DNA of 64,000 nt from the NCBI GenBank assembly GCA_030692375.1, contig JAUYCD010000109.1, positions 9,221 through 73,220 on the forward strand, in the 5' to 3' direction. The position numbers were made by a program, and so were the translations under genes. Shown here piece after piece: positions 6,263-54,640 of the stretch (position 1 is its first letter; each line of letters starts with the position of its first letter). The notes beneath the pieces were generated by a model, which worked only from the letters and a program-made list of their open reading frames with translations, was not told the DNA's origin and searched no databases. This DNA comes from Candidatus Latescibacter sp. GTDB lineage: Bacteria > Latescibacterota > Latescibacteria > Latescibacterales > Latescibacteraceae.

Positions 6263-6587
6263 TTACTCAATTAATGATGGTACGGCAAAAAGTCACAGTG
6301 AATGTTATTTTCAGAATGACAAGACAGTATTATATGTTTTATTGTGCATACTATACTATTGAAAACTCACCCCCTGACCCCCTCTCTTGAAAATAGAGGG
6401 GGAGAACCATCTGCTTCTTAAAATACGTATTATCAACAAAATAACTAACTCAAAGTCGTACCCCCTCTCTTATTAAGAGAGGGGATCAAGGGGTGAGTTA
6501 TCTCCAAAAAATGAGATTGTATAGTGTTCTAATGTCTTGATGAATATTTTCTGAATTCTTTTTTGCCGTATCATCAATTAATGATAG
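6263..6587. repeat. MITE-like element: imperfect 28-bp terminal inverted repeats (ttactcaattaatgatggtacggcaaaaagt / cttttttgccgtatcatcaattaatgatag) enclosing GC-rich hairpin repeats
   Basis: TIRs read at 6263-6292 and 6559-6587. Inside are ccccctctcttgaaaatagaggggg and ccctctcttattaagagagggg hairpins flanked by cacccc/ggggtgag. Confidence 0.5.
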
Positions 6588-6901: not shown

Positions 6902-7711
6902 ATGCTACCGAATATAGATCGCTATAAGAAGGACATTGACTCTCTACTTGCCATGGGCGAGCAACTACATCTCGCCATGCAGCGAGAGTGTTTTCCTGAG
7001 GGGCTCGAGAGCGCCGTTAAAAAGAATTTCGGCGACAAGGCGAAGGACATCCTCAAAGGCCTTCCCTCGTTTACAGAGACTTATCAGTCGTGGTACTCGG
7101 AGGCGAAGGTGCTGGTCAGGCAAATGCTGCCCGACCGTCTTTCAGACTTCGTTCGCCACTACGAGAAACCTAAGCCGCGCAAGGACATCACGTACGAGAA
7201 TTACAGAATCGAGGACTACCTTCAAGGACTAAACGTTACTCGCGGATGGGAGAAAGTGAAGGTCGTTGGACCCGACGCCGCTATTCCGCACTTCCGCCAG
7301 CAGCTAGCCATCCTGAAGTCAGTGAAAGTACGCTTTGAGAGCTCTCTATTCGACATCCGTCAGCTGGTTCAAGCCGATCTTTTCGACTCAGAACTGGATG
7401 CAGCGAGAGAACTTGCAAAGCACAAGTTTACGCGAGCCGCGGGTGCCTTGGCCGGAGTGGTTCTAGAGCGGCACCTGGCACAGGTGTGCGACAACCACGG
7501 CATAAAGGTTACGAAAAAGGCGCCTGGCATCGCTGATCTGAATAACGCTCTCAAGGATTCGGATGTTATCGATGTCCCTCAGTGGCGCTTTTTACAGCAT
7601 TTGGCAGACATCCGTAACTTATGCGACCACAATAAGAAGTCAGAGCCTACTGCGGAGCAAGTTGATGACCTAGTGGCTGGTATAATGAAGGTCACAAAGA
7701 CACTTTTCTAA
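6902..7711 (+). CDS. Hypothetical protein with a C-terminal HEPN-like RNxxxH motif (DIRNLCDHN); candidate Abi/HEPN ribonuclease
   Basis: ORF with GGAGGGAG RBS before MLPNIDRYKK. Local GC is lower than the flanks. It has an Rx4H motif and a helical C-terminus. No homologue was recognised beyond that motif. Confidence 0.5.
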   Translation: MLPNIDRYKKDIDSLLAMGEQLHLAMQRECFPEGLESAVKKNFGDKAKDILKGLPSFTETYQSWYSEAKVLVRQMLPDRLSDFVRHYEKPKPRKDITYENYRIEDYLQGLNVTRGWEKVKVVGPDAAIPHFRQQLAILKSVKVRFESSLFDIRQLVQADLFDSELDAARELAKHKFTRAAGALAGVVLERHLAQVCDNHGIKVTKKAPGIADLNNALKDSDVIDVPQWRFLQHLADIRNLCDHNKKSEPTAEQVDDLVAGIMKVTKTLF

Positions 7712-7970: not shown

Positions 7971-8043
7971 AGCGCCATCCGTTAGGCATTTATGAAATTA
8001 CTTCTTGACATGAGCTGATTGTCATACAAAACGAGAAAATAAA

Positions 8044-8316
8044 ATGGGTAAATATGAAAAGCTATTGATAAAAATCTTACGAGGGACATATGATGCCAAT
8101 ATTTCTTTTTCAAACATATGCCAGTTATTGAGAAAGTTTGGATTTGATGAACGAACTCAAGGTGACCATCATATTTTCACCAAGGATGGCGCTGAAGAAA
8201 TACTGAACTTGCAATCCAAAGAATCAAAAGCTAAGTTATATCAGGTAAAGCAAGTTCGTAATTTCATACTTAAATATAAATTGAAATTGGAGGAAAAAGA
8301 TGATGAGCAGATATGA
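8044..8316 (+). CDS. hicA: HicA-like mRNA interferase toxin (YcfA family)
   Basis: ..LLRKFGFDERTQGDHHIFTKDG.. matches the HicA G.HH core. It is immediately followed by an overlapping HicB gene. The locus is low GC. Confidence 0.5.
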   Translation: MGKYEKLLIKILRGTYDANISFSNICQLLRKFGFDERTQGDHHIFTKDGAEEILNLQSKESKAKLYQVKQVRNFILKYKLKLEEKDDEQI

Positions 8317-9735: not shown

Positions 9736-9957
9736 TGTTGTAGCCTTTGCGGTGATGAGGATTATGATTATGAAAATAACTCTTTCCGCCGCCGAATGCA
9801 ACAGAGTGTATCAAGCTTCCGGCTTGGAACATCACGTGGAGTCCTCTTTTATTCTATTCGAGAAAGGCTTACCTTTGCGACTTTGCGTCTCTGCGAGATA
9901 TAATCTTTATTCTCTCTTCTGTCTTCTTCCTCTGCGTCTCTGCGAGAAATAATCTTT

Positions 9958-11034
9958 TCAGCCCAGCGGATAGTTCCCATATTCCCGGACGGCGCCGTAA
10001 AATGCAAGGATATTTTCCAGCGGCACGTCCGGCTGAAAATTGTGCGAAGGCCCCAGGATAAGTCCCCCGCCTGGCCCGACCGTCCTGATACGCAGTTTCA
10101 CTTCTTCCTCTACATCATGGGGAGAGCCAAAGGGCATTACATCCTGGATATCCACTGTGCCCCAGAAGCTTAGATTTTTTCCGAAGCGCTGTTTCAGGTG
10201 CGCCGGGTCCATGGATTTCGGCTGGACGGCGTTCAGGATATCCACACCGATTTCGATGTATTCGGGAAGGAGGCTTTCGATGTTGCCGTCGCTGTGGTAG
10301 GCGATTTTCACATCGGGCTCTATCTTCCGGAATTCCTGTATCAGTGAGGCATACCGGGGTTTGAAGAATTCCCGCCATGTATCCGGAGAAACGATGAGTG
10401 AATGCTGGGTTCCGAAGTCATCCCCCAGCCAGAGAATATCCACTCCGAGTCCTGCAAGGGTCTTGCCGGTAACCAGTTGAAAGCCGTAAAGCTTATCCAG
10501 GAGAGCATGGGCGAAATCCTTGTTCAGCATCAGGTCTGCCAGGAATTCCTCATAACCGCGCAGATACCAGGCAGCTTCGAACAGGGTGCAGGGCATGCCT
10601 CCGACAATGACATGGGTACTGCCGTGCTCAGTGAGAAGCCTGCGGGCCGAATCATATCTCCAGGATTCGTGAGGGTCGGGACAGGAGAAAGAGGAGAGTT
10701 GGTTTCCATCGCGGAGGGGGCGTTTCACCATCTCCGTGTAGCGGCCGTGCGGGATGTCAACCCAGCGCCAGCCGATCCCCCATTCGCAGGTGTATTCCTT
10801 TTCTTCTCTGGCATAGTAGCTCGTGGCGATACCATGCCAGGCCACCAGGATGTCGTGCCCCATGACCAGCGGAAGTTCCGAGACCTTGCCGCTGTAGGCT
10901 TCGGCGGTAGAGTTCCGGAGCCTGAGATGCCGGGAGAGCTTTTCGGCGGCCTCGGGGGTAAAATCCGCATGAATGGGGACCCTGTCCGGCTCTTCGTGGT
11001 TGATGGCGGTCAGAACCCGTTCTCGTGAGGTCAT
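9958..11034 (-). CDS. Uroporphyrinogen-decarboxylase (URO-D)/MtaA-CmuA-family protein, paralogue 1
   Basis: About 358 aa with a URO-D-like fold signature (..EEPDRVPI..GGMPCTLFEAAWYLRGYEEFLADL..). The start is at MTSRERV after AAAGGAAA. Confidence 0.7.
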   Translation of the reverse strand: MTSRERVLTAINHEEPDRVPIHADFTPEAAEKLSRHLRLRNSTAEAYSGKVSELPLVMGHDILVAWHGIATSYYAREEKEYTCEWGIGWRWVDIPHGRYTEMVKRPLRDGNQLSSFSCPDPHESWRYDSARRLLTEHGSTHVIVGGMPCTLFEAAWYLRGYEEFLADLMLNKDFAHALLDKLYGFQLVTGKTLAGLGVDILWLGDDFGTQHSLIVSPDTWREFFKPRYASLIQEFRKIEPDVKIAYHSDGNIESLLPEYIEIGVDILNAVQPKSMDPAHLKQRFGKNLSFWGTVDIQDVMPFGSPHDVEEEVKLRIRTVGPGGGLILGPSHNFQPDVPLENILAFYGAVREYGNYPLG

Positions 11035-15574: not shown

Positions 15575-15607
15575 GCGCCTGCAAAAAAAGCGGGCGCTTT
15601 TTTATTG
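15575..15607 (+). terminator. Rho-independent terminator after groEL
   Basis: agcgcctgcaaaaaaagcgggcgctttttt stem-loop plus T-run. Confidence 0.6.
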
Positions 15608-15679: not shown

Positions 15680-16009
15680 ATGAATGATCGGATACACTCA
15701 ATCCTGGCGATGTTCGAAGGTGATATTCCACCGTTGCTCCGTAATAATATCGTCAAAATACTCATATTTGGATCGTATGCCAGGGGCGAACCCACGAGTG
15801 AGTCCGACCTTGATATAGCGGTTATAGTAACAAAAAAAATCCCCAAAATGGTCCAGATGCTGGATGATTGCGCATACCGGGTTATGTGGGAATATGATTT
15901 CGATCCGGTTATATCGCTGAAAGTGTTCTCGGAAGATGAGTTTTCCGAAGCGGTGCGGTGCGGCTTTTCTTTTTATCGCAACGTTCTCGACAAGGGGATA
16001 CCGGTATGA
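15680..16009 (+). CDS. Minimal nucleotidyltransferase (MNT) inserted behind groEL
   Basis: ILIFGSYARGEPTSESDLDIAVIV motif. AT-rich cassette. A 30-aa overlapping ORF (16006-16098) may be the remnant of its HEPN partner. Confidence 0.65.
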   Translation: MNDRIHSILAMFEGDIPPLLRNNIVKILIFGSYARGEPTSESDLDIAVIVTKKIPKMVQMLDDCAYRVMWEYDFDPVISLKVFSEDEFSEAVRCGFSFYRNVLDKGIPV

Positions 16010-16117: not shown

Positions 16118-16232
16118 GGCAGCGGCTCGCACGGCGGTGGAATGGGTGGAATAGGCAGAATGTACTAAAAAGCAAAAGCAACAAGATATCATGAACGCGC
16201 CTGCGAAAAAAAGCGGGCGCTTTTTTTATTGT
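16118..16232 (+). repeat. Diverged duplicate (about 88% identical) of the groEL 3' end plus terminator (15498-15607), flanking the MNT cassette on the right
   Basis: gggcagcggctcgcacggcggtggaatgggtggaataggcagaatgtactaaaaagcaaaagcaacaag..gcgcctgcgaaaaaaagcgggcgcttttttt compared with the groEL end. Confidence 0.8.
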
Positions 16233-24120: not shown

Positions 24121-24272
24121 AACTGTCTGAACCATGATTCGCTTGATTTCATGATTACCATGATTAGATGCCGAAACGAGTTCGGCATGACACGTGTCAC
24201 CCTGAACTTGTTTCAGGGTCATCATGGTAATCCTTGAATCCCATGAATCATGGTTCAGACAATCTGTGAGAA
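24121..24272. repeat. Nested palindromic compound element filling the pheS-pheT spacer
   Basis: Outer inverted repeat ctgtctgaaccatgattc/gaatcatggttcagacaatc, middle inverted repeat catgattaccatgat/atcatggtaatc, and a central gccgaaac..gttcggc-atgacacgtgtca-ccctgaac..gtttcaggg core. Confidence 0.75.
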
Positions 24273-24287
24273 AGGGTTGAATTTTTC

Positions 24288-26855
24288 ATGAAACTTTCGC
24301 TCGAATGGCTCGGACAGTATGTTGACCTTGCCGACCTTTCACCAAAAGATATCGCCTATAAACTGACCATGTCCACCGCTGAGGTCGAGGATGTGGAAAT
24401 ACTGAAACGCGCGGTGAAAGGGATTATAGCCGGAGAGATTATCGAGATTGAACCCATCGATACCGGCGACAGCGGCAAACTCATGCAGTATGTCACTGTG
24501 AACACCGGCGCGGAAACCTTCAAAACCGTTTGCGGCGCGCCCAATGTGAAACCGGGCATGAAATCCGCGTTCGCCGCCCCCGGCGCTGTCATCGCTGACA
24601 ATTTTTTAGTGCAGGAGCAAAAGGTCTTCGGCCTCATGAGCCGGGGAATCCTTTGCAGTCCGAAAGAGCTGGGCTGGGGCGAATCTCACGCCGGGATAAT
24701 TGCGTTTCCGGACAGTCTGCCAAAAGGAACCGAGCTTGCCTCCCTCGTTCCCGAATACGACCATGTCATCGAGATCGACAACAAGAGCATCACGCATCGC
24801 CCCGACCTCTGGGGTCATTACGGTTTCGCGCGGGAGATGGCCGCCATCTACGGGCGTAGTCTTAAACCGCTGGAGTTGATCGATGCTTCGGAAGGAAATG
24901 ACCTGCCTCCCTTCCCCCTGCGTATCGATGACCGTGAGGGCTGCCCTGGGTATTGCTGCCTGGAAATCGACGGCCTTTCTCCGGCTTTTTCGCCGGTGGA
25001 GATGCAGTACCGTCTCCTGGCGGTAGGTCTCCGGCCTATTAACCTGCTGGTAGACTTGACCAATTACCTGATGTGCGAGCTGGGGCAGCCCATGCACTCG
25101 TTCGACGGCGAGAGGGTGAGGGATATTATCGTTGCTCCCTTCGGAAAAATCGGCGCCTACCAGACACTGGACAGTGTGGAGCGGAAGATGATTCCCGAAG
25201 ACCTGATGATCTGCGACCATGACGGCCCCATTGCTCTGGCCGGTATCATGGGCGGCGAGGATTCGGAGGTAAAAGAGGGGACTTCACGGGTGCTTCTGGA
25301 AAGCGCCAATTTCAATCCCGCCCGCATCCGGAGGACCATGATCCGTCTCGGGCTGCGCACCGACGCCGGAGTCCGGTTTGAAAAGGGACAGCCGCCCTAT
25401 CACATGGCTCTTTCCATACGGCGTTTCGTTCATCTCCTCCGCGAGGCGGGGCAGAAAGCGAGGCTCCGCTCGCAGCTTACCTGCGGGGGTGATACCGGAG
25501 AAAAAGGCCGCCTTTTGTCCATGGATAAATCGGACCTGACTCGTTCCATCGGTATGGCGATCCCTGACGGGCGGGTGCGGAAGATTCTCGTTTCGCTCGG
25601 CTTCGAATGCACGATCAACGACAAGGAGATTCTCCTTGTTATCCCGCCGCACCGGAGTGCGAGGGACATTTCCATTCCCCGCGACATTGTCGAGGAGGTA
25701 GCCCGCATCTACGGCTACGACAATATTGTCCCGTCCATGCCTGATATGAAGATGCGGTCCGGTACATTTAATACCGAACTCCAGAAACAGCATAAAATCC
25801 GCCGATTCCTGAGCCAGGCTAAGGGATTTTCAGAGGTCCATACCTACAGTTGGTATGATGACATATGGCTCAAACGGATGGCATACAACCCGGGAGAGAC
25901 GCTGACCCTGGTGAATCCCGCCGCTGAGAACAACACCCGTATGCGCCGTGAGCTTATTCCGAACCTTTTGGAACTGGTGGAAATGAATGCGGTTCACCGC
26001 GACACTATCTCATTTTATGAAATAGGCAACGTGTTCCATCCCGCTCTTCGGCAGGCTCAGAGCCCACTGAACTCTGAGCTTGTCGAAGAGTCGAATGGTT
26101 TCCGGCAAGCCATGCATCTGGGAGGAGTGGTTTATCAAACGGAAAAAATCGGGAATCTCCAGGAACTTTTCCTGCGTGTAAAAGGGACTGTGGAGGAGAT
26201 ATGCGCATTTACGAATGCGGGGATTCCGGAATTCACCGCCTCGCACTCTTCGGCAGGCTCAGAGCCCACTGATCGAGCACTGAGCTTGTCGAATCGAGCA
26301 CTGAGCTTGTCGAATCAAGCACTGAGCTTGTCGAATCGAGCACTGAGCTTGTCGAAGTCCGCCAAACCCTGGACTGTACCAGGCTCTTATCTCAATATTC
26401 ATATTGGTGATTCCTCCGCAGGGCAGATCGGGTATCTTACAGGCAATCTTTTGAACCTTTACGAGCACTTAACGCAGATTGTCTGGTTCGAGCTCCTGGT
26501 GGATGTCCTGGCCGGGCCGACTTTCCCCGATGTATTGTATAGCGAGATACCGGTGTACCCCGGTTCCTGGATGGATTTCTCCGTTTTAGCGGATAAGAAT
26601 CTGAGCTATGCCGTTTTGGGGGAAAGCATAAGGAAGTTTACTCATCCGATTCTCCGAAAGGTAAAGTACCTGTATCTTTTCAGCGGAAATATTAAGGGGG
26701 GAGAAAAAGGCCTGCCGGAAGGCGAAAAAAAAATTTCCTATACATTCCGTTTCTGGCTCGGGCTGAAGGATAGAACTTTGACTGGAGATGATCTATCACA
26801 ATTTAGGGAGTTTTTCCTTCGCTATCTGGAAGAAAACGGACTTGCGCTAAGATAA
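24288..26855 (+). CDS. pheT: Phenylalanine--tRNA ligase beta subunit carrying in-frame repeat-element insertions
   Basis: Domain order is typical of PheT (N-terminal tRNA-binding, B3/B4, B5, C-terminal). At 855 aa it is about 50 aa longer than usual because of the repeat-encoded segments ..RQAQSPLNSELVEES.. and ..SHSSAGSEPTDRALSLSNRALSLSNQALSLSNRALSLSKS.. Confidence 0.93.
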   Translation: MKLSLEWLGQYVDLADLSPKDIAYKLTMSTAEVEDVEILKRAVKGIIAGEIIEIEPIDTGDSGKLMQYVTVNTGAETFKTVCGAPNVKPGMKSAFAAPGAVIADNFLVQEQKVFGLMSRGILCSPKELGWGESHAGIIAFPDSLPKGTELASLVPEYDHVIEIDNKSITHRPDLWGHYGFAREMAAIYGRSLKPLELIDASEGNDLPPFPLRIDDREGCPGYCCLEIDGLSPAFSPVEMQYRLLAVGLRPINLLVDLTNYLMCELGQPMHSFDGERVRDIIVAPFGKIGAYQTLDSVERKMIPEDLMICDHDGPIALAGIMGGEDSEVKEGTSRVLLESANFNPARIRRTMIRLGLRTDAGVRFEKGQPPYHMALSIRRFVHLLREAGQKARLRSQLTCGGDTGEKGRLLSMDKSDLTRSIGMAIPDGRVRKILVSLGFECTINDKEILLVIPPHRSARDISIPRDIVEEVARIYGYDNIVPSMPDMKMRSGTFNTELQKQHKIRRFLSQAKGFSEVHTYSWYDDIWLKRMAYNPGETLTLVNPAAENNTRMRRELIPNLLELVEMNAVHRDTISFYEIGNVFHPALRQAQSPLNSELVEESNGFRQAMHLGGVVYQTEKIGNLQELFLRVKGTVEEICAFTNAGIPEFTASHSSAGSEPTDRALSLSNRALSLSNQALSLSNRALSLSKSAKPWTVPGSYLNIHIGDSSAGQIGYLTGNLLNLYEHLTQIVWFELLVDVLAGPTFPDVLYSEIPVYPGSWMDFSVLADKNLSYAVLGESIRKFTHPILRKVKYLYLFSGNIKGGEKGLPEGEKKISYTFRFWLGLKDRTLTGDDLSQFREFFLRYLEENGLALR
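26262..26345 (+). repeat. Four tandem copies of the 21-nt unit cgagcactgagcttgtcgaat inside the pheT reading frame
   Basis: Read directly from the sequence. The same gagcttgtcgaa/ttcgacaagctc core recurs at 26072-26088, 186-200, 350-430 and 56106-56160. Confidence 0.85.
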
Positions 26856-28426: not shown

Positions 28427-30049
28427 GTGCTTATTCCCGGAGATAAAATGCCGAAGGTAGATTTTCTGATTATAGGGTCCGGTATCGCCGGTCTTTCCTT
28501 TGCGCTCAAGGTTGCCAAACTGGGCCGGGTGGCCATCATCACCAAAAAAGGCGATTGCGAGTCTTCCACCAATTACGCCCAGGGGGGCATCGCCAGCGTC
28601 CTGGGGAATGATGATTCCCCTGAACGTCATGTCGCCGATACACTGGCTGCCGGCGACGGCATCTGTCATGAAGATATGGTGCGGATGGTTGTCGAAGAGG
28701 GCCCGGGGATGATTGAGCAGTTGATTACCTGGGGCTGCCGGTTTAACCGTGAGCCGGACGGAACCCTGTCCCTGGGAAGAGAGGGAGGGCATACCCGTGA
28801 CCGGATCGTGCACACAGACGATCTTACCGGCCGTGAGATAGAGAGGGCGCTCATCGAGAGGGTGAAAGAGCATGAGAATATAACTTTTCTCAACAACCAC
28901 ATCGCGGTTGACCTCCTTACCGAGCATAATGTGGGGGTGATCAGCAAACACCGCTCCTTCAACTGTTTCGGCGCCTATGTCCTGGATGTTGAGAACGCCC
29001 GCATCGAGACTTTCATGGCGGGAACCACCCTTCTTGCCACCGGAGGGACCGGTCAGGTATACCTGCATACTACAAACCCTGAAATCGCCACCGGCGATGG
29101 GGTTGCCATGGCATTCCGCGCAGGCGCGAGCGTGGGAAACATGGAATTCATGCAGTTTCATCCCACTACGCTCAATCTCCCGGATGGAGGGTCGTTTCTT
29201 ATATCGGAAGCGGTAAGGGGATATGGCGGCATTCTGGTGACCGAGAGCGGGAAACGCCTCATGGAGTCTCATCCCATGAAAGACCTGGCTCCCAGAGATA
29301 TTGTGGCCCGGACAATCGACCATTACCTGAAAAGCAGCGGCCAGGAACAGGTGTACCTCGATATCACCGGATTCGACCCCGGCGCGACCAGGGCGCGATT
29401 TCCCCATATCCATGAAACCTGTCTCAGGTATGGTATCGACATTACCAGGGAACAGATTCCGGTTGTTCCGTCGGCGCACTATATGTGCGGAGGGGTGGTT
29501 ACCGATGCATGGGGACGGACCTCCATTTCCAATCTCTATGCAGCGGGAGAAACGGCATTCACCGGCCTGCACGGCGCGAACCGTCTGGCATCCAATTCCC
29601 TTCTCGAAGCGGTGGTCATGGCGGACCGTGCCGCGACGGCGGTGCGCAAAGAGCGCCAGAAACCCCAGGATCTCCCCGAAGTGCCCGACTGGAACGACCG
29701 CGGCACTTTTGACCCGGAGGAATGGGTTATCATATCACACGACAGGGAGAATATCCGTCGTCTCATGTGGGATCTGGTCGGCATTGTGCGGAGCGATTTC
29801 CGCCTGCGCCGGGCCATGAGCCGTATCGCTCTGATCCGTGAAGAAGTCGAGGAATACTACCGCCGCACCCGGCTTTCGCTCGAGTTGATCGAGCTTCGGA
29901 ACCTGGCGGTATCGGCCTGGCTTATTGTCGTATGCGCCCGGCACCGCAAGGAATCGCGGGGGCTGCACTATAATACCGATTACCCTGGCCGTGACGATCT
30001 GCTCTGGAAACATGATACCGTGATCAGGAATGAAGAGATACTTTTATAA
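28427..30049 (+). CDS. nadB: L-aspartate oxidase
   Basis: VDFLIIGSGIAGLSFAL..YAQGGIA.. FAD fold; length and motifs fit NadB. Confidence 0.88.
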   Translation: MLIPGDKMPKVDFLIIGSGIAGLSFALKVAKLGRVAIITKKGDCESSTNYAQGGIASVLGNDDSPERHVADTLAAGDGICHEDMVRMVVEEGPGMIEQLITWGCRFNREPDGTLSLGREGGHTRDRIVHTDDLTGREIERALIERVKEHENITFLNNHIAVDLLTEHNVGVISKHRSFNCFGAYVLDVENARIETFMAGTTLLATGGTGQVYLHTTNPEIATGDGVAMAFRAGASVGNMEFMQFHPTTLNLPDGGSFLISEAVRGYGGILVTESGKRLMESHPMKDLAPRDIVARTIDHYLKSSGQEQVYLDITGFDPGATRARFPHIHETCLRYGIDITREQIPVVPSAHYMCGGVVTDAWGRTSISNLYAAGETAFTGLHGANRLASNSLLEAVVMADRAATAVRKERQKPQDLPEVPDWNDRGTFDPEEWVIISHDRENIRRLMWDLVGIVRSDFRLRRAMSRIALIREEVEEYYRRTRLSLELIELRNLAVSAWLIVVCARHRKESRGLHYNTDYPGRDDLLWKHDTVIRNEEILL

Positions 30050-30066
30050 AGAAGGAATCCAGAATC

Positions 30067-30589
30067 CAGGAGCCAGAATCCAGAATCATGAAGCAAACAA
30101 ATGAGAATCTAATACTATACATTCTATCGATATCGCGGTTATGAAATGGAACGGTCTCCCGCAAAGAGTTTTGAAGATTTGCTGGTCTGGCAGAAATCAC
30201 ACCGGCTGGTTTTGGGTATATATAGCTTCAGCGAATCATTCCCAAATAAGGAAATGTACGGACTGATATCTCAGATAAGGCGCGCAGCGGTTTCCGTTCC
30301 TGCGAATATTGCCGAAGGTTTCAAAAAGCGGGGCTGTAACGATAAGGTTCGCTTCATGAACATAGCACAAGGTTCTTTGGAAGAATGTCGGTACTATCTT
30401 ATTCTGGCGAAAGATCTAGGATATGGGGACAGCATAAATTTGCTTAAACAGTTGGAAGAGGTGAGTAGACTCCTTGATTCATATTCCCGAACAATTAGTG
30501 CACAAAATTCCTGATATTATTGGAAGAAGAATATTCTGCTGTACTAATATATTTTCGCATTTATTCTGGATTCTGGATTCTGGCTCCTG
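30067..30589. mobile_element. Cassette of about 520 bp bounded by 21-bp perfect inverted repeats (caggagccagaatccagaatc) that carries the four-helix-bundle gene
   Basis: Left inverted repeat at 30067-30087 and right inverted repeat (as reverse complement) at 30569-30589. It sits between nadB and guaA. Confidence 0.6.
30146..30514 (+). CDS. Four-helix-bundle protein (23S rRNA intervening-sequence protein family, TIGR02436-like)
   Basis: ..FEDLLVWQKSHRLVLGIYSF..ISQIRRAAVSVPANIAEGF.R....F..IAQGSLEE..YL.LA.DLGY. Confidence 0.75.
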   Translation: MERSPAKSFEDLLVWQKSHRLVLGIYSFSESFPNKEMYGLISQIRRAAVSVPANIAEGFKKRGCNDKVRFMNIAQGSLEECRYYLILAKDLGYGDSINLLKQLEEVSRLLDSYSRTISAQNS

Positions 30590-30610
30590 AATTCTTCTTT
30601 TTGAGGTTTT

Positions 30611-32416
30611 ATGCTTAAAACAAACAAAATCACCATTCTCGATTTCGGCGGCCAGTACGCCCACCTTATCACCAAGCGGATCCGCCGCCTGGGAGTGTAC
30701 GCGGATATAAAGCATCCCGATGTGAGCCTGGAGGAATTGGGGCATCCCGGCGGCATCATTCTCTCCGGCGGGCCATCGAGCGTGTATGCAGAGAACGCGC
30801 CGCCCTTCAACCGTAAGATTCTCGGGACCGGCATTCCCATTCTGGGCTTGTGTTACGGCATGCAGCTTATCGCCTATTTCCTTGGCGGTGAGGTGCGAAG
30901 GCTCGCGAAGCGGGAGTACGGCCGGGCGGAGCTGGAAGTGACCGGGTACTCCCCCCTGTTCGAGGGACTTTCGCGCCGGGAGCTTGTGTGGATGAGTCAC
31001 GGCGATTCGGTGGCGAGTATCCCTGAAGGTTATCGGAGCATCGGAAAAACTTCCGACTGCCCCTTTGCCGCAGTCAGCAATGAGGAAGAGAAGATTTACG
31101 GTTTGCAGTTCCATCCCGAAGTCACCGATACCCCTTCCGGCAGCCGGATTCTGGAAAATTTCATCCGCATCTGCGGCCTTGAGCGGAACTGGTCGATGGA
31201 AGGGTATATCGAGGAGAAGATGAAAGAAATCCGGGAGAAGGTAGGCAGCCGTAATGTATTTCTCCTGGTGTCGGGAGGGGTAGATTCCACCGTGACCTTC
31301 ATGTTACTCAACCGTGCGCTGGGCGAAGACAGGGTGATCGGTATCCACATTGATAACGGGTTCATGCGGAAGAACGAAACCGCCGAAGTGAAGGAAGCCC
31401 TCGGCCGGCTCGGATTCCACAATCTCATTGTTGTGGACCGCACGGAAGATTTCCTTCGGGCGGTTGAAGGTCTGACCGACCCGCAGGAAAAGCGGAATGC
31501 TATCGGCGATGAATTCATGTATGTGAAAGACCGCGAGCTCGAGGCGCTGCACCTTGATCCCGACCGGTGGCTGCTTGGACAGGGAACGCTCTATCCGGAC
31601 ATAATCGAATCCGGAGGCAGCCGTCACGCCGATATAATCAAGACCCATCACAACCGCACAGATATGATCAAGAAAATGGTGGCGCGCGGTCAGGTGATAG
31701 AGCCGCTGGATCAGCTCTACAAGGACGAGGTGCGCGAAGTCGGCGAAAAGCTCGGACTGCCTCACGAGCTGGTCTGGCGTCATCCGTTCCCCGGACCGGG
31801 AATCGGAGTCCGGGTTTTGTGCGACCGTGGAGGAGTTTCCTCAGAGGATTTCAAAGAAATCCGCAGCCGGGTGAGAAAAAAAGCAAAACTTGCCGGGTAT
31901 GAGGCGATGATCCTGCCGGTGAAGAGTGTAGGAGTGCAGGGAGACTGCCGCACTTATGCCCATCCCGCCGCGCTGGACGGCCCGCCGGACTGGGAAAAAC
32001 TCGAGTTCCTCTCCACCGATATCACGAACGAGATTACCGGAGTGAACCGCGTGGTCCTCAAAATCGGCGGCGGCGCCCTGAAACCGCTTGTGAGCAAGGC
32101 TGCCACTCTTACCCGCGACCGACTCGACCTCCTCCGCGAGGCCGATAACCAGGCGATGCAGGTGCTCCGCGAGCATGGATTGTATGCAGAGATTTTTCAG
32201 ATGCCGGTGGTTCTTCTGCCCATATCGTCCGATGGTGTGAAAGAGAGCATAGTCATACGGCCGCTCCGGTCATCGGATGTGATGACCGCAAAGTTCTACC
32301 GGATGCCGGTCGGGAGTGTAGAGGAGATCGCAAGGAGGATTCTTGCGCTGGGGGTCATCGAGTATGTATTTTACGACCTCACCAACAAACCGCCGGGAAC
32401 GTTCGAGTGGGAATGA
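30611..32416 (+). CDS. guaA: GMP synthase (glutamine-hydrolysing)
   Basis: Class-I GATase N-terminus (ILDFGGQYAHLI..LGLCYGMQL..) followed by an ATP-pyrophosphatase SGGVDSTV P-loop and a C-terminal dimerisation domain. Confidence 0.9.
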   Translation: MLKTNKITILDFGGQYAHLITKRIRRLGVYADIKHPDVSLEELGHPGGIILSGGPSSVYAENAPPFNRKILGTGIPILGLCYGMQLIAYFLGGEVRRLAKREYGRAELEVTGYSPLFEGLSRRELVWMSHGDSVASIPEGYRSIGKTSDCPFAAVSNEEEKIYGLQFHPEVTDTPSGSRILENFIRICGLERNWSMEGYIEEKMKEIREKVGSRNVFLLVSGGVDSTVTFMLLNRALGEDRVIGIHIDNGFMRKNETAEVKEALGRLGFHNLIVVDRTEDFLRAVEGLTDPQEKRNAIGDEFMYVKDRELEALHLDPDRWLLGQGTLYPDIIESGGSRHADIIKTHHNRTDMIKKMVARGQVIEPLDQLYKDEVREVGEKLGLPHELVWRHPFPGPGIGVRVLCDRGGVSSEDFKEIRSRVRKKAKLAGYEAMILPVKSVGVQGDCRTYAHPAALDGPPDWEKLEFLSTDITNEITGVNRVVLKIGGGALKPLVSKAATLTRDRLDLLREADNQAMQVLREHGLYAEIFQMPVVLLPISSDGVKESIVIRPLRSSDVMTAKFYRMPVGSVEEIARRILALGVIEYVFYDLTNKPPGTFEWE

Positions 32417-32425: not shown

Positions 32426-32902
32426 ATGGAAACAACTGTGGATTTTGAAAAGAGAGATTTGTTTGTAGAAAGAGTTCACCAACTCATTTCCATGATGCAG
32501 AAATGGGTAACATATACCGGACTATATACTATCGTCTCAAATATTATAGTTGAGGAAACTATTCCGGGGAAATATACTATTGAAATGCTTGAAATTAATG
32601 ATAAAGATGGAAAACTTGTTGCAAAAGTAATCCCTGTCGGTGCGTATGTGATTGCAGCAGAAGGGCGTGTTGATATCAAAGGCTACCTGGGAAAAGAAAG
32701 TGTGGTATTCCTTAAATACGGCGGGCCTTCAATTGTTTCCAAAGTTAATGGAGAGGTTGACAGGGTATCGAGTCTTTACGATGGTATTACTGCCGAAGGA
32801 TGGTTTTGGATAGAAGATAAGCGGATGAGAAGGGCTTATCCATTTGATGAAAAGATATTTTTAGAACTAATAACCAGGGTGAGCGATTATGAGTTCCGTT
32901 GA
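32426..32902 (+). CDS. Hypothetical protein (158 aa), first gene of an AT-rich two-gene cassette
   Basis: ORF with an AGGAGGATAT RBS; no recognisable family. Confidence 0.5.
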   Translation: METTVDFEKRDLFVERVHQLISMMQKWVTYTGLYTIVSNIIVEETIPGKYTIEMLEINDKDGKLVAKVIPVGAYVIAAEGRVDIKGYLGKESVVFLKYGGPSIVSKVNGEVDRVSSLYDGITAEGWFWIEDKRMRRAYPFDEKIFLELITRVSDYEFR

Positions 32903-33446
32903 TCTTCTCCTGCCCATTTGGGAATCCTATCGTTTGCTTAAAGATTCTTCTGTTGTAACGAAGCGAGCACTGAACAGAGAATGGGAATCGCCTGAAGAGC
33001 AGAAATACTTCTTCGATGGTACCGAATTTCGCAGCGATACAAAATCTGAAGCCGCTGAGTCTGTAGATAGAAGTTTACAATCGATTGAAGATTTGATGAT
33101 TTTATCGTTATATGCGACTTTTGAGCGGTATATCATCGAATGCCTCCAGGAGAAGGGTGAATCGATAAAAGGCAAGAGACCTGAATGGTTATCCGATAAG
33201 TTGTATTTACGTTTTGAAAACAGCATCGAAAGAGGAAGTCTCGACGAAGTTTTTTCCTGGTTTAAAAATGCTCAGGTTATTGATAGCCAGCTTTTTGAGG
33301 ATTTAAAAAAGACAAAGATGTACCGAGATTGGATCGCTCATAGAAATCCAAAAAGAAAGCCTCAAGAAATAAGCGATCCTTCAACTGTTTATAGTATCCT
33401 TTCAACGGCGATTGAAAAAATCGATTCGGTTTTTCATATTCATTAA
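32889..33446 (+). CDS. Hypothetical protein (185 aa) with a candidate HEPN Rx4H motif (YRDWIAHRNPK)
   Basis: ATGA-type start overlap with the upstream gene; helical protein; the motif was read from the translation. Confidence 0.5.
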   Translation: MSSVDLLLPIWESYRLLKDSSVVTKRALNREWESPEEQKYFFDGTEFRSDTKSEAAESVDRSLQSIEDLMILSLYATFERYIIECLQEKGESIKGKRPEWLSDKLYLRFENSIERGSLDEVFSWFKNAQVIDSQLFEDLKKTKMYRDWIAHRNPKRKPQEISDPSTVYSILSTAIEKIDSVFHIH

Positions 33447-34266: not shown

Positions 34267-35463
34267 ATGGGAGTAACAATAATCGTAGATAAATGTACAG
34301 GCTGCCGTGCATGCGTCAAGGCATGCCCGTTCGGCGCCCTAGAGATGGTGAACGCCAAGGCTGTCTGCCTCGATTCATGCAACCTTTGCGGGATCTGTGT
34401 CGAATCCTGCAAGTTCGAGGCCATCGAAGCCCCCGCCCGCGATACCTCTCCGGTCGCGGATCCGGACAGCTACCGCGGTGTATGTGTTTTCATACAGGCG
34501 GATGGAGATTCCATCCATCACGTCTCGCTCGAACTGGTCGGAGAGTCCCGGAAACTTGCCGACGAACTGGGAACAGAAGTGTGCTGCATGGTGATGAGCG
34601 GTTCGGTGGAAAAAATCATAGACGACCTTTCTCATTATGACATACAACATATCTATACGGTGGAAAATCCCGTTCTCGCGCGCTATCGCACAGTACCCTA
34701 CGTCGAGGCCGCTTCCTTTTTGATTCGGAGTTTCCGGCCGGAGATCGTTCTCATCGGGGCCACATCCACCGGAAGAGATTTCGCCGGGGGGCTGGCCACC
34801 GAGCTCCAAACCGGACTCACCGCCGACTGCACCAGCCTGGATGTCGATGTTTCCGCCCGCAGCCTTCTCCAGACCCGTCCGGCTTTCGGCGGGAACATCA
34901 TGGCCACCATCAAATCCTCCCGCCACCGGCCTCAGATGGCGACCGTGCGGCCCAAGGTTTTCCCTATGCCGCTCCGGGGCGACCTGCGCCCGGTCAAAGT
35001 GGTAAAGATAAAAAGGAACCTGGCGGAAAACGGCCAGAAAACCCGTATCCTCGAATGGCTTCCTATTCGCGACGGAGTAAACCTTGCCGATGCCAATATC
35101 ATCGTCTCCGGCGGAAGAGGCATCGGAAAACCGGAGAATTTCGCCATTCTTCAGGAACTTGCCGACTTGCTCGGCGGGGCTTTGGGCGCCTCACGGGCGG
35201 CGGTGGATGCCGGTTGGATCGATTACTCCCACCAGGTGGGACAGACGGGACGGACAGTTCGTCCCATCGTCTACATTGCCTGCGGAATCTCCGGCGCCGT
35301 GCAGCATCTGGCCGGGATGAAAACGTCCGATGTGATTATCGCCGTCAACCGCGACCCTTCGGCGCCCATCTTCTCTGTGGCGACCTATGGGTACGTCGGC
35401 GATGTCATGGATATCGTTCCGAAAATGATCCAGGAATTGAAGAGCCGCATGGGACGGAAATGA
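34267..35463 (+). CDS. etfA: Electron transfer flavoprotein alpha subunit with an N-terminal 2x[4Fe-4S] ferredoxin domain (FixB-type)
   Basis: CTGCRACVKACPFGAL..CNLCGICVESCKFEAI followed by the EtfA FAD-binding domain. Confidence 0.85.
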   Translation: MGVTIIVDKCTGCRACVKACPFGALEMVNAKAVCLDSCNLCGICVESCKFEAIEAPARDTSPVADPDSYRGVCVFIQADGDSIHHVSLELVGESRKLADELGTEVCCMVMSGSVEKIIDDLSHYDIQHIYTVENPVLARYRTVPYVEAASFLIRSFRPEIVLIGATSTGRDFAGGLATELQTGLTADCTSLDVDVSARSLLQTRPAFGGNIMATIKSSRHRPQMATVRPKVFPMPLRGDLRPVKVVKIKRNLAENGQKTRILEWLPIRDGVNLADANIIVSGGRGIGKPENFAILQELADLLGGALGASRAAVDAGWIDYSHQVGQTGRTVRPIVYIACGISGAVQHLAGMKTSDVIIAVNRDPSAPIFSVATYGYVGDVMDIVPKMIQELKSRMGRK

Positions 35464-35556
35464 GATAATAATAGAATACAGGAGTCAGGAGTCAGAAGAC
35501 AGAATGAAAGACAAGGACGAAGGATGAAAAGATTGTCTCTTGAGCATGTTTTGAGT

Positions 35557-35628
35557 ATTTAGATCCTGAAACGAGTTCAGGATGACACGTGTCATGCCGA
35601 ACTTGTTTCGGCATCTATTCCAGGATCA
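35557..35628. repeat. Palindromic element agatcctgaaacgagttcagg-atgacacgtgtcat-gccgaacttgtttcggcatct
   Basis: Near-identical copies occur at 49680-49745 and, split by another repeat, at 56078-56190. A partial copy forms the 5' end of the 58320 gene. Confidence 0.8.
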
Positions 35629-35681
35629 GCAATCAGCGTATGCAGAAAAATGTTTTCCATATATAAGGATGGTGAAACTTC

Positions 35682-36959
35682 ATGAATAAAACTAGCGACA
35701 GTCCATCGGGGTGTTGTACGGGATCTTATCTTTCAAAATCAGATCCCGAAGTTTACGCCCAGATGGTTGAGGAATACGAACGTCAGCGCGGCAGCCTGGA
35801 AATGATAGCCTCGGAGAACTATGTTTCTCCGGCGGTTCTTGAAGCAGCAGGCTCGGTGCTCACCAACAAGTACGCCGAAGGTTATCCGGAGCGCCGTTAT
35901 TACGGCGGGTGCGAGTTTGTGGACAAAGTGGAGAATCTCGCCATCGAGCGCGCCATAAAACTGTTCGGCTGCGACCATGTGAATGTCCAGCCACATGCCG
36001 GTTCTCAGGCAAATATGGCGGCCTACTTTGCTTTAATCAAGCCCGGCGCGAAAATCATGGCCATGGACCTTGTTCACGGCGGCCACCTGACCCACGGCAG
36101 CAAGGTGAATTTCTCCGGTCGCATGTATCAGATCATTCCCTACGGTGTCCGTCCGGGCGACTGCCTCATCGATTATGACGGCCTTGCCCGGAAGGCCCGT
36201 GAAACCAAACCCGACCTGATAGTAGCCGGAGCGACCGCCTATCCAAGGCTGATCGATTTCACCCGATTCCGTGAAATAGCGGATGAAGCCGGGGCAAAAT
36301 TCATGGTGGACGCCGCCCATATAGCCGGACTCATCGCGGGCGGGGTACACCCCAGCCCCATACCCTGCGCGGACATTGTCACCTGCACGACCCACAAGAC
36401 CCTTCGCGGTCCACGCGGCGGAATGATCATGAGCACCGCGGAATTCGGCAGGGCGGTGGACAGGCAGGTTTTCCCCGGCATCCAGGGCGGGCCGCTCATG
36501 CATATCATCGCCGCCAAGGCGGTTGCATTCGGAGAGGCGTTGAAGCCTGAGTTCAAAGCGTATTCAGAAACGGTTGTTTCGAACTGCAGGATTCTTGCCG
36601 ATGTGCTCCTGTCGTACGGTTTCAAGCTCGTTTCCGGCGGTACTGACAACCATCTGATCCTGGTGGATTTCACCGGCGCCGGAATTACAGGAAAAGCCGC
36701 CCAGGAGGCTCTCGGCGTGGCCGGAATTACCGTGAACAAGAACAATGTTCCGTTCGACACCGCCAGCCCGGCAGTAACCAGCGGAATGCGCATCGGCGCC
36801 GCGGCTCTCACCACCCGTGGCATGCGCGCCGGGGAAATGCGCCGTGTTGCCTCCATGATCAAACGGGCGCTGGAATCGATCGATGACGCCGATAATCTCC
36901 TGAAAATCCGTGAGGAAACCCGGGAGATGGCCGAGTCGTTCCCGATATTCGCGTGGTAA
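35682..36959 (+). CDS. glyA: Serine hydroxymethyltransferase
   Basis: ..[30 protein letters not shown].. Confidence 0.95.
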
Positions 36960-37035: not shown

Positions 37036-37140
37036 TCACCCCCTGTCCCCCTCTCCTAGTCAGGAGAGGGGGTAACTCGCGGCGGGCCATGTTATTACCC
37101 TCTCCTAATTAGGAGAGGGTGGCTGAAAGCCGGGTGAGGT
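37036..37140. repeat. Compound palindromic element: cctcaccc outer inverted repeats with cccctctcctagtcaggagagggg and ccctctcctaattaggagaggg hairpins
   Basis: Read directly from the sequence; it lies after glyA. Confidence 0.8.
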
Positions 37141-40227: not shown

Positions 40228-40345
40228 AACCTCACCCGGCCTTTGGCCACCCTCTCCTAGACAGGAGAGGGTAAAGACTTGGCTCGCCGTGAGTTACCCC
40301 CTCTCCTGACTAGGAGAGAGGGATAGGGGGTGAGGTTTATAAAGC
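40228..40345. repeat. Compound palindromic element of the ctcaccc/ccctctcctag.caggagaggg family
   Basis: Read directly from the sequence; it lies after the PNP gene. Confidence 0.8.
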
Positions 40346-48149: not shown

Positions 48150-48270
48150 TTTAAACCACACCCCCTGTCCCCCTCTCCTAGTCAGGAGAGGGGGGTAACT
48201 CTTTACGTGCCACATCTTTACCCTCTCCTAATTAGGAGAGGGTGGCCGAAGGCCGGGTGAGGTTTTATCG
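48150..48270. repeat. Compound palindromic element, near-identical to 37036-37140
   Basis: acaccccctgtccccctctcctagtcaggagagggggg..ccctctcctaattaggagagggtggccgaaggccgggtgaggtt. Confidence 0.8.
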
Positions 48271-49679: not shown

Positions 49680-49745
49680 TTGCTTCGATTTAGATCCTGA
49701 AACAAGTTCAGGATGACACGTGTCATGCCGAACTTGTTTCGGCAT
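49680..49745. repeat. Palindromic cctgaaac/gccgaac element, copy of 35557-35628
   Basis: tttagatcctgaaacaagttcaggatgacacgtgtcatgccgaacttgtttcggcatctat. Confidence 0.8.
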
Positions 49746-49919
49746 CTATAAACGATCACAAATCAGATCGCGAACCTTGTCGAATGGTAAGATAGTAAAA
49801 ATGTAAAATGACCCTTCAACTCGTCAGTATGATTTCAATATCACTCACCGAAGGCGCTTCTGATGCAATGCGCACCAGACAGCCTCATGCTGCTTGACAT
49901 TCATTTTGGAGTATACTCA

Positions 49920-52725: not shown

Positions 52726-52995
52726 CAAGTCCTCATCTGCCGGTCGAATATAAGTCATCTATACTTTATGCAGACATTATAGCAATATTCTCTTAAAAGT
52801 CAAGCTGATTCCACATGGATTCATAATCCTGAGCCACCGGAACGGAGTTCCCCTTACCCACTTGGAGAGGAGGTTTAGGGAATGCGGGTGTTTTTCCCGC
52901 TTGCAAAAATCCTTGCGTCTTTTTATCTTCTATTCACTTACACCGTTGAGAAACGCTGCGCCCCCATCCTCTTCACCCACTCAAGGAGGAGAACA

Positions 52996-54243
52996 ATGCT
53001 TTCGTCCCTTTACAAAGGTCTGCTTTTGCTTATTGTTTTCCTGCTGATAATCGGTCTGGCTTCATGTTCGAAAAAAGCTCCCGAAAAGGCAGTGCAACCG
53101 CCGCCCCCTCCGAACAGCCTTCTGGCTCTGAAAAACGCGCTAACCGACTCCACCAAACGTCCCATAATCCCCAGGCAGGTCGGAAAAGAGAATAAACAGC
53201 TCATAACCCTCGCCGGAATGGATCCTTCCGGGCCGCAGTTGGTCATCGATCCCGCACTGGCCGGAAGGGTCATGGGTGTTTCCTTTGACGGGGATAACGG
53301 CGACAACCTCTTCTGGGTAGATAAGTCCATCCTCGATGGAAGTTACTTCAGCGCCAAACCGCCGAGCTGGAACGCCGGAGGTCTCCGTACCTGGCTGTCT
53401 CCCGAAGACCTGTTTTTCCTGCCGGAGGACAAGGATGCGAAGAAGTGGTTTGTGCCCGCCGAGCTCGACCCGGCGCCCTATACAGTGTATGCTCAGGGTA
53501 AAGGCGAAGTTACCCTTCAGCTTACCACAAGCATCAAATCCAACATGGGGAAGACCTATAACCTTCTCCTCACCCGCCGTATCCAGCTTGTTCCTTTCTA
53601 TACCGATTCGGTCGGGACGGTGTTGCCGAAGGACCTCAAGTATGTAGGCATAAATCTCTTCCATTCCATGCAGAATCTATCCGATGGAATAATCGGCAAG
53701 GACATGCCCTATATCTGCCTCTGGAGCCTTCTCCAGATGAATCCCTCCGGGACCATGCTCATCCCCCTCGCCAAAAAAGCCGACCCAAAGAGGGCATACC
53801 GCGACTATTTCAATCCGCTGGGGCCGGACCGTATTGCCATCGAGAACAATATCATCTCGGTGAAGATCGACGGGAAATACCGCTCAAAGATCGGTGTGAA
53901 CGCTAAAGCCGCCGGGCCTGGTATCGCATACCTTAAGGATGAGGGCAGCGGCCAGGGAATACTGTTCGTCCAACTTTTCACGGTCGATCCTAAAGGGATC
54001 TATGTAGACAAGCCCTGGGGCAAGAAGAGCGATTACGGCGACGCTATCGAGATGTACAATGATGACGGCAACATGGGCGGTTTCACCGAAATGGAGTGCC
54101 ACAGCCCGGCGAAAAAAATGGCCAGGGGTGAGTCGGAATTTCATGAACTCCACCTGCACATTTTCAAGGGACCTATACCCGAACTCCATAAAATCGGCTC
54201 TTTGCTCCTTTCGACCGATATTTCCAAGGCGAAATATTATTAA
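52996..54243 (+). CDS. Lipoprotein, hypothetical (415 aa)
   Basis: AAGGAGG RBS; MLSSLYKGLLLLIVFLLIIGLASC lipobox. Confidence 0.65.
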   Translation: MLSSLYKGLLLLIVFLLIIGLASCSKKAPEKAVQPPPPPNSLLALKNALTDSTKRPIIPRQVGKENKQLITLAGMDPSGPQLVIDPALAGRVMGVSFDGDNGDNLFWVDKSILDGSYFSAKPPSWNAGGLRTWLSPEDLFFLPEDKDAKKWFVPAELDPAPYTVYAQGKGEVTLQLTTSIKSNMGKTYNLLLTRRIQLVPFYTDSVGTVLPKDLKYVGINLFHSMQNLSDGIIGKDMPYICLWSLLQMNPSGTMLIPLAKKADPKRAYRDYFNPLGPDRIAIENNIISVKIDGKYRSKIGVNAKAAGPGIAYLKDEGSGQGILFVQLFTVDPKGIYVDKPWGKKSDYGDAIEMYNDDGNMGGFTEMECHSPAKKMARGESEFHELHLHIFKGPIPELHKIGSLLLSTDISKAKYY

Positions 54244-54640
54244 AAAGCAGAATACAGGAGTCAGAATAAAAGACAATTTCTCGCAAAGTTCGCAAAGTTC
54301 GCAAAGAAAGAAATGAAGATGTCTGAACCACGGATAGCCGGGATTGAAGGACAGGATAAAGAGACAAAGACAGGATGAAAAGATATTTTCCCTCTTCTGT
54401 ATTTTGTATACTTTCTTTATCGCTTTTGCGTCTGGATAAATTTATTTACATCCCGTTTATCCGTTCATCCTGACCATCCGTGGTTCAGACAATCTTTCTG
54501 TCTTTTCATCATCTTCTATCACTCACATCACACAAATCAGTGGTTCAGACAATCCTTCATCCTTTTCTTTCCTTTTGACTTTTGCCCCCGGAAAATGTAT
54601 CCTGTATAGAGCATATTTGGAGAAACCGATGAAGGAGGAT
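54244..54640. repeat. 400-bp repeat-dense intergenic region: 3x cgcaaagtt tandem repeat, three gtggttcagacaatc motifs, and caggagtcag motifs
   Basis: Read directly from the sequence. The gtggttcagacaatc motif also occurs at 1340-1357, 24121-24140, 24253-24270 and 36975-36995. Confidence 0.7.

Follow-up and report, generated by a model that had tools for sequence, protein, structure and literature searches.

What kind of element is a small gene that lies between two inverted repeats in the spacer separating nadB from guaA? We addressed this question for a 64,000-nucleotide stretch of a Candidatus Latescibacter contig (JAUYCD010000109.1; hereafter the window), in which a gene for a 122-aa four-helix-bundle protein of family PF05635 is flanked in this manner. 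The arms around the gene proved to be inverted tandem arrays of a 7-nt unit, and the same architecture was found around homologues in many phyla and, in one case, inside a 23S rRNA gene. With a confidence a little better than even, we read the element as a promoterless hairpin cassette of the intervening-sequence (IVS) type, read through from the host operon and carrying arms that pair in the RNA.

The four-helix-bundle gene lies in the loop of a heptamer-array hairpin

The sequence CAGGAGCCAGAATCCAGAATC occupies positions 30067-30087 of the forward strand, and its exact reverse complement lies at 30569-30589. As the preliminary description of this DNA had stated, these perfect 21-bp repeats bracket only the 122-aa gene, between nadB and guaA (Table 1). 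Matches to the 21-mer with up to three mismatches numbered zero in 100 dinucleotide-preserving shuffles, and no further copy of it was found in the 64-kb window. Complementarity of the arms extends beyond this core to 32 nt at 91% (30061-30092 and 30564-30595), and the minimum-free-energy RNA fold pairs approximately 30050-30087 with 30569-30601, with one 7-nt slip. Tandem Repeats Finder (TRF) placed 4.7 copies of GAATCCA at 30055-30087 in the left arm and 4.7 copies of ATTCTGG at 30563-30595 in the right arm. The arms consist of tandem copies of a 7-nt unit (GAATCCA/GGAGCCA) in inverted orientation, and the variant unit GGAGCCA was found in the left and right arms alike. The outermost bases, AAAGAAG and CTTCTTT, are themselves inverted. 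Using RNAduplex, we obtained a duplex energy of -56.9 kcal/mol for the two arms, compared with a mean of -25.3 kcal/mol for shuffled sequences.

The hairpin loop of about 480 nt holds the 122-aa gene, the sole open reading frame (ORF) inside the hairpin with a family match. Its product matched PF05635 with an E-value of 4.7e-36 (123.7 bits; cutoff 33.8) and TIGR02436, "four helix bundle protein", with 117.5 bits (cutoff 24). The closest solved structure is that of Xanthomonas campestris XCC0516 (PDB 2GSC, E 5e-20), and an identical 122-aa protein is recorded in a metagenome-assembled genome of Candidatus Latescibacter. The cassette fills the spacer tightly: the left array starts 5 nt after the end of nadB, and guaA starts 9 nt after the right arm. 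Rfam gave no match, and hence no rRNA, on the whole window. A scan of 29900-30750 detected no promoter-like or terminator-like site on the strand of the gene, and PADLOC reported no defence-system match for it.

The architecture recurs around homologues in many phyla

The analysis covered 80 loci, taken from GTDB species genomes, with genes for proteins about 63-78% identical to the window protein. The titles of these records name approximately 14 phyla, some of the taxon labels being doubtful; Nitrospirota, Verrucomicrobiota, Cyanobacteriota, Acidobacteriota, Desulfobacterota, Bacteroidota, Ignavibacteriota, Planctomycetota and Bacillota are among them. Nearly all loci examined are metagenome-assembled contigs. 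For each locus, 220 nt upstream of the gene were aligned to the reverse complement of 220 nt downstream, and the score was expressed as z relative to shuffles. A strong inverted repeat (z >= 4) was present in 42 of the 77 evaluable loci, a count made from the result table. The units of the arms were nearly always CAG[GA]A[GAT]N heptamers, such as CAGGAGT, CAGAATT and CAGAAGT.

A stricter motif was then defined as two adjacent CAGRANN units within 160 nt upstream on the sense strand or within 160 nt downstream on the opposite strand. Arrays satisfying it on both sides, in inverted, purine-first order, were found in 51/80 loci, and 67/80 had an array on at least one side. When a dummy gene was placed at random in the same loci, both-sided arrays were obtained in 0 of 1203 placements. 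The array signal was limited to about 150 nt on each side of the gene and had fallen to the background level within 200 nt; the pyrimidine-first arrangement was essentially absent. These results bear on the simplest explanation, coincidence, by which heptamer microsatellites, being common in intergenic DNA, would flank a small gene only by chance. It is true that arrays without a gene occur in the window and at other loci, and that Xanthomonas and Nostoc are known to have heptamer arrays near ORF 3' ends (PMC4692102). The control placements and the distance profile nevertheless refute coincidence, and the probability that we leave to it is negligible.

Inverted arrays also accompany more distant members of the family. 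Among 12 plasmid-borne PF05635 copies with 37-48% identity to the window protein, nine had inverted arrays of other units. The unit was GGTGACA in Anabaena sp. 90, AGGGTGT in Calothrix brevissima, AGGGAAC in Nostoc edaphicum, GGGAAAA in Nostoc ATCC 53789 and Geminocystis, GGCAGAA in Stanieria and GGTTYAA in Riemerella. In Nostoc PCC 7120, units of the GGCAGAA type were present downstream of the gene only, and the copy of Calothrix PCC 7716 had only weak arrays.

The nadB-guaA spacer alternates between two cassettes and an empty state

By a NadB protein-cluster search followed by contig look-up, we obtained 13 metagenomic contigs of the Latescibacter clade. The PF05635 gene with heptamer arms was present in the window and in L081, L082 and L164, in which NadB is 79-82% identical to that of the window; the gene-bearing relatives thus carry the repeats as well. 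In L188 (NadB 97% identical), the heptamer left arm is followed by the end of the contig. A different gene, encoding a GxxExxY protein (PF13366/TIGR04256), was found in L163, L172, L171 and L189 (NadB 73-90%). Finally, the site was empty in L165, L173, L166 and L174 (NadB 72-76%), with spacers of 64, 74, 142 and 23 nt, respectively. A metagenome scan with NadB returned closest matches of only 53-59% identity, none with guaA or a cassette downstream.

The GxxExxY cassettes occupy exactly the spacer that holds the four-helix-bundle gene in the window. Their gene encodes about 125 aa (TIGR04256, E 4e-43) and has inverted arrays of the 9-mer TCGCAAAGT on either side (L163:2388-2850); the L172 copy is frameshifted and that of L189 has premature stops. 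Arm duplexes of six cassettes at nadB-guaA had energies of -45 to -73 kcal/mol, compared with shuffle means of -17 to -29 kcal/mol. The arms of orthologous cassettes differ in unit number and sequence. The left arm of L188, GGAGACA GGAGTCA GGAGTCA GGAGCCA, differs in its units from that of the window despite 97% NadB identity. The units of the arms therefore turn over rapidly while complementarity is kept. Outside Latescibacter, the flanks of GxxExxY genes were mixed: inverted 9-mer arrays were present in Gemmatirosa, Bacteroides and Bernardetia, an upstream array only in Sphingomonas, a 12-nt inverted repeat in Treponema, and direct repeats in Fusobacteria and Prevotella. As a further observation at this site, a right-arm segment (CTGGCTCCTGACTTCTGGCTCCTGACTCC plus about 45 nt) is tandemly duplicated at L164:4600-4800, bringing the length of the spacer up to 710 nt.

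Neighbour joining of nadB placed the four empty lineages at the base of the tree, and each of four subclades combined a single PF05635 copy with a single GxxExxY copy. In a smaller tree of 11 taxa, bootstrap support was 100% for three of these pairs; the trees are distance-based and rest on short alignments. The Latescibacter PF05635 copies are monophyletic in the family tree and are about as diverged (74-84% identical) as the flanking genes (NadB, 72-91%), which points to a long vertical residence in this lineage; the GxxExxY copies are 69-73% identical. Although the cassettes at nadB-guaA are of old date and were inherited for the most part, the state of the site has changed on several occasions. 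These changes fit repeated replacement, exchange between lineages and long-lived dimorphism alike. The spacer amounts to a natural experiment, in which one and the same site is empty in some related genomes and holds one or the other cassette type in others.

The pairing of both cassette types within each of the four nadB subclades, together with a divergence of either type similar to that of NadB, would be expected if the site were a recombination hot spot with two old alleles, the cassettes being swapped via the conserved flanks or kept as a long-lived polymorphism and the arms being incidental. We assign this explanation a low probability. Flank identity agrees with the nadB tree as far as the junctions and shows no clear conversion tract, and two alleles at one site leave the occurrence of the same architecture at unrelated sites in other phyla unexplained. 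Moreover, the sample consists of 13 metagenomic contigs.

In the preliminary description, the 21-bp repeats were taken to suggest cassettes that are bounded by terminal inverted repeats (TIRs) and travel in this genome. On such a reading, the element would be a DNA transposon, or would resemble a miniature inverted-repeat transposable element (MITE), with ends recognised by a transposase acting in trans. Part of this proposal survives. The gene with its inverted arms is a discrete unit that recurs in many phyla, and cassettes come and go, as the site is filled by the gene, by another small gene (in four relatives) or by nothing (in four others) in close relatives. The notion of TIRs in the transposon sense found no support. 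The arms are microsatellite arrays of variable length that differ between orthologous cassettes, also where NadB is 97% identical; the borders show no direct target duplication; and the element contains no transposase but only the helical-bundle ORF, although no genome-wide search for a trans-acting transposase was made. Travel within this genome fared no better, given that the 21-mer is unique in the window, that tblastn revealed no second four-helix-bundle gene there, and that the Latescibacter copies are monophyletic and as diverged as their neighbours. A megablast search with a Nostoc cassette against plasmids returned orthologous contexts at about 82-84% identity and array-only matches and no near-identical copy in another context. 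A scan of viral contigs with the 122-aa protein found nothing, and no recent transposition was evident from these searches. We consider a transposon with true TIRs unlikely and give it a very small probability.

A probably promoterless cassette resembling rRNA intervening sequences

The cassettes are mostly oriented with their surroundings. In 51 of 73 loci, the long ORFs on either side had the direction of the gene; in six, both were opposed to it. Annotated examples from plasmids agree with this. Among them are PF05635 genes between cas6 and cas4 and between cas10 and cmr3, while genes of the GxxExxY family lie between radA and a gene for a FAD-dependent protein, between ade and the gene for a mannose-1-phosphate guanylyltransferase, and between fabD and fabG. 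When the mismatches between the arms were read on the sense transcript, G-U combinations outnumbered A-C combinations (73 vs 43, p 0.007), a modest excess to which arm composition could contribute.

As a separate observation, three four-helix-bundle genes lie within CRISPR-cas operons, in Pseudanabaena galeata (L176), Anabaena sp. 90 (L181) and Picosynechococcus (L187). These genes are inserted between cas6 and cas4, directly upstream of cas4, and between cas10 and cmr3. The P. galeata copy (pPg_01) is accompanied by long direct arrays of (AAAAGCT)n and (AAAAGCC)n.

One copy connects the cassettes to rRNA. In Azospirillum lipoferum AZO_p2 (L179), the element lies inside a large-subunit (LSU) rRNA gene; the Rfam model LSU_rRNA_bacteria matched with 401.9 bits, its positions 975-1455 spanning the insertion. 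The stem consists of the heptamers CAGAGGA, CGGATGA and CAGAAAG and their complement (fold z -8.9). At least one classical ORF-bearing IVS thus has arms of the same kind as the window cassette.

The 23S rRNA IVSs of Leptospira and Coxiella burnetii (S23p; Ralph & McClelland 1993, as cited in PMC4990558) share several properties with the window cassette. They encode a PF05635 protein, and the ORF lies in the loop of a stem. Their complementary termini form an extended stem around the element, as do those of the window cassette. They measure about 430-550 nt, have no promoter of their own and are co-transcribed with the host RNA, as the window cassette would be by read-through. In the Coxiella IVS, an ORF of the PF05635 family is located in the loop of a stem of 28-bp terminal inverted repeats, and RNase III cuts within this stem; the same cleavage is cited for Leptospira and Salmonella (PMC4990558). 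The differences are that the window copy lies in the spacer of a protein-coding operon and not in helix 9, 25 or 45 of 23S rRNA, and that tandem-repeat arms and alternation with a second gene family are absent from the IVS description in PMC4990558.

From these similarities we propose the following model. The PF05635 gene occupies the loop of a hairpin whose strands are inverted tandem 7-nt microsatellite arrays and which fills the spacer from nadB to guaA. Transcription would occur by read-through from the host operon, and the arms would pair in the RNA to form a stem of 21 to about 40 bp. Such a stem would be a substrate of RNase III, like the stems of ORF-bearing 23S IVSs, and by this analogy RNase III probably cuts the paired arms. 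Cleavage would free the cassette RNA and leave the host RNA usable, which would explain the tolerance of such cassettes in operon spacers as well as in rRNA helices. Owing to their tandem-repeat build, the arms could pair in several registers. Slippage or template switching may also homogenise them anew, and this would explain why both arms of the window cassette contain the GGAGCC variant.

Several observations weigh against this model. By the strict motif, 13 of the 80 loci have no array, and the arrays around the Pseudanabaena homologue are direct, not inverted. The Shine-Dalgarno sequence at the start codon of the 122-aa gene is weak, and the G-U excess is, as said, modest. Solo arrays without a partner occur in the window (see below), and pairing cannot be their role. 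Furthermore, a plain RNase III stem requires neither periodic arms nor units that follow the protein clade, and the different period (9 nt) of the arms around the second protein family is likewise left unexplained. Periodicity and clade-linked units fit either co-transfer of gene and arms or recognition of the repeats by the encoded protein.

Both ORF-bearing rRNA IVSs and bacterial heptamer microsatellites have been without an explanation for decades. Our results suggest a common architecture for the two, with an inverted-microsatellite hairpin holding a small conserved gene in its loop, and the same hairpin architecture is also present in ordinary operon spacers. For annotation, it explains the frequent N-terminal over-extension of these genes through the arrays, and it may explain assembly breaks beside them.

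Repeat units follow the protein clade

The clade-linked units raise the question of whether the four-helix-bundle protein could recognise its own 7-nt repeat, in RNA or in single-stranded DNA, its gene being placed between the cognate repeats. The arrangement might resemble that of transposase genes between palindromic repeats (see below), or the protein might form a ring on the repeats, as TRAP does on tandem triplets. Arrays without a gene would then be targets in trans, and recognition could coexist with the RNA-stem model. We regard a cognate protein-repeat system as possible, though on the whole we doubt it.

What speaks for recognition is that the type of unit tracks the protein clade and not the host. 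CAGRANN units accompany the clade of 63-78% identity across about 14 phylum labels, while within the cyanobacteria other protein clades carry other units. Two pairs of related proteins from different hosts have a common unit: the Nostoc 7120 and Stanieria proteins, 83% identical, share GGCAGAA, and those of Geminocystis and N. edaphicum, 77% identical, share AGGGAA[AC]. The unrelated GxxExxY family has arms with a period of 9 nt at the very same site, and gene-less arrays of the same unit family occur on the same contigs as the genes. The 2GSC entry comprises five chains, and the family is related to the Avd proteins of diversity-generating retroelements (DGRs). On the other hand, units vary much within a single array, and L182 and L177 have a unit in common although their proteins are only 43% identical. 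If gene and arms were transferred together, clade and unit would be correlated in the same way without any recognition. Nor does the protein contain a catalytic domain capable of spreading repeats.

Heptamer repeats have been described in Xanthomonas (GGGAATC) and Nostoc (GGGGAYT) as simple sequence repeat (SSR) arrays (PMC4692102). Like the arrays studied here, they are tandem 7-mers in intergenic DNA near the 3' end of the upstream ORF; they often form convergent inverted pairs, 70 of which were listed in X. campestris, and their site is kept between relatives at variable length. The core is similar as well (GAATC/GGAGT). Array #15 of X. campestris, of the GGGAATC type, adds to the case for recognition, as it abuts XCC0516, the protein solved as 2GSC: the array, GGGAATCGGGAGTGGAGAATCGGGAATC, lies 6 nt past bccP and overlaps the annotated start of XCC0516 (Rehm et al. 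2015, supplement, PMC4692102). These arrays were treated as potential G-quadruplex formers, however, whereas the window units GAATCCA and GGAGCCA lack a GGG tract and so fall outside that definition. No link to a gene family was present in the text and supplements searched, and a search of the main text for "S23" and "hypothetical protein" yielded nothing tying the arrays to the PF05635 family (PMC4692102).

Two other systems invite comparison. Gene placement between inverted short repeats, with gene-less copies of the repeat near the 3' ends of genes, is common to the window cassette and to repetitive extragenic palindromic (REP) sequences, their hairpin-forming doublets (REPINs) and the REP-associated tyrosine transposases (RAYTs). 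In the work of Nunvar (2010) and of Bertels and Rainey (2011), REP/REPIN repeats are said to flank the RAYT gene in inverted orientation, with many gene-less copies near the 3' ends of genes. RAYTs are transposases of the HUH/Y1 type, whereas for the window protein Pfam and NCBIfam report four-helix-bundle families only; we know of no catalytic motif in this 122-aa helical bundle. In addition, the window repeats are tandem microsatellites and not single palindromes. The second comparison is with Avd of DGRs, to which the protein shows distant homology (PF22296, E 0.0013; PHROG "Avd protein of DGR", 4e-6; NF033474, 21.3 bits, which is far under the cutoff of 80). The flanking genes are nadB and guaA and not a reverse transcriptase gene.

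A still broader proposal can be formulated. PF05635 proteins and, separately, GxxExxY proteins of the PD-(D/E)XK fold may be partners of family-specific repeat hairpins, each clade recognising its own 7- or 9-nt unit. The rRNA IVSs, the heptamer microsatellites (Xanthomonas GGGAATC and those of cyanobacteria) and the operon-spacer cassettes would then be one system, and the strict alternation at nadB-guaA would reflect a dimorphic locus kept across speciation. We put this forward very tentatively and think it improbable. A literature search that included the family names, GxxExxY and CAGGAGTCAGGAGT found no description of the hairpin-cassette architecture; its coverage was incomplete, and a prior description is possible.

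Gene-less arrays and other repeats

The preliminary description had pointed to related motifs near 35480 and 54250. These are true heptamer-family arrays, yet they contain no gene and have no inverted partner (Table 1). Further gene-less arrays were found on the opposite strand. Folding of 4396-4570, 35455-35685, 54236-54460 and 9800-9965 revealed no inverted partner array, and two of the four regions were no more stable than shuffles. The 9-mer at 54281-54306 is the arm unit of the GxxExxY cassettes in L163, L171 and L172. An earlier candidate explanation, that these 9-mers are the decayed 5' end of a four-helix-bundle gene, was dropped on this ground. The window contig carries arrays of the 9-mer family at 54281-54306 and 9873-9940 and has no GxxExxY gene.

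Table 1. Positions of the cassette, its host genes and the gene-less arrays in the window
Feature	Position	Strand	Basis or context
nadB (L-aspartate oxidase), upstream host gene	28427-30049	+	ORF; 100% identical to "L-aspartate oxidase [Candidatus Latescibacter sp.]"
Left arm, GAATCCA GAATCCA GGAGCCA GAATCCA GAATC, purine-rich on sense strand	30050-30092	+	TRF, RNA fold; perfect core 30067-30087
Four-helix-bundle gene (PF05635/TIGR02436), 122 aa, hairpin loop	30146-30514	+	Profile matches; 2GSC
Right arm, ATTCTGG x4.7, contains GGCTCC	30563-30601	+	TRF, RNA fold; core 30569-30589; T-rich tail, then guaA ribosome-binding site
guaA (GMP synthase), downstream host gene	30611-32416	+	ORF; orthologues with Pfam GATase and GMP_synt_C
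Solo heptamer array CAGGAGT CAGGAGT CAGAAGA CAGAATG (CAGGAGTCAGGAGTCAGAAGACAGAATG)	35479-35506	+	15 nt past stop of ORF 34267-35463
Heptamer array CAGAATACAGGAGTCAGAATA, gene-less	54248-54268	+	Starts 4 nt past stop of ORF 52882-54243
9-mer array TCGCAAAGT x2.9, after heptamer array	54281-54306	+	TRF
Gene-less heptamer array CAGAAGA CAGAAGA CAGAAT	4529-4553	-	TRF
Gene-less mixed arrays: 9-mer type TCGCAAAG/TCGCAGAGACGCAGAGG, heptamer type GAAGACAGAAGAGAG	9873-9940	-	TRF

Gene-less hairpins of CAGRANN arrays, with loops of about 15-100 nt, were observed in other loci (L001:1500-1575; L002:5430-5515; L031:2490-2575, 7335-7425 and 8000-8085; L055:4023-4165). They share contigs with gene-bearing hairpins, and L001 and L002 hold one at an orthologous site. 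In L023 (167-640 and 3902-4188), two pairs of heptamer arrays surround about 250-420 nt that seem not to code for protein. A segment common to both inserts is oppositely oriented in the two, and the loop content here is thus other than the gene.

Downstream of guaA, two overlapping ORFs (158 and 185 aa) at 32426-33446 separate it from electron transfer flavoprotein (ETF) genes and matched nothing in Pfam or PADLOC. In L165, L166 and L173, guaA is directly followed by the ETF gene, and 32426-33446 may be a second variable insertion site. Near-identical palindromic hairpins, AAAAAAAGCGGGCGCTTTTTT, at 15583-15603 and 16207-16227 bracket a gene for a 109-aa nucleotidyltransferase-domain protein (15680-16009).

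The window also contains repeats of other kinds. A dispersed, intergenic family of double hairpins (TAGATCCTGAAACGAGTTCAGGATGACACGTGTCATGCCGAACTTGTTTCGGCATCTA and variants), REP- or MITE-like in appearance, is present at 35560-35617, 49691-49748, 56076-56194, 24173-24214 and approximately 4400-4470. Several intergenic sites (37049-37119, 48171-48242, 40252-40318 and 6361-6502) contain palindromes of the type CCCTCTCCTAGTCAGGAGAGGG in pairs, with about 27 nt between the two. An inverted repeat with the ends TGTCTGAACC and GGTTCAGACA encloses about 60-110 nt in each of two copies (24124-24261 and 54320-54491). Finally, a 21-nt tandem repeat, ATCGAGCACTGAGCTTGTCGA, in four copies with 96% identity (26272-26356), lies inside the ORF at 24288-26855.

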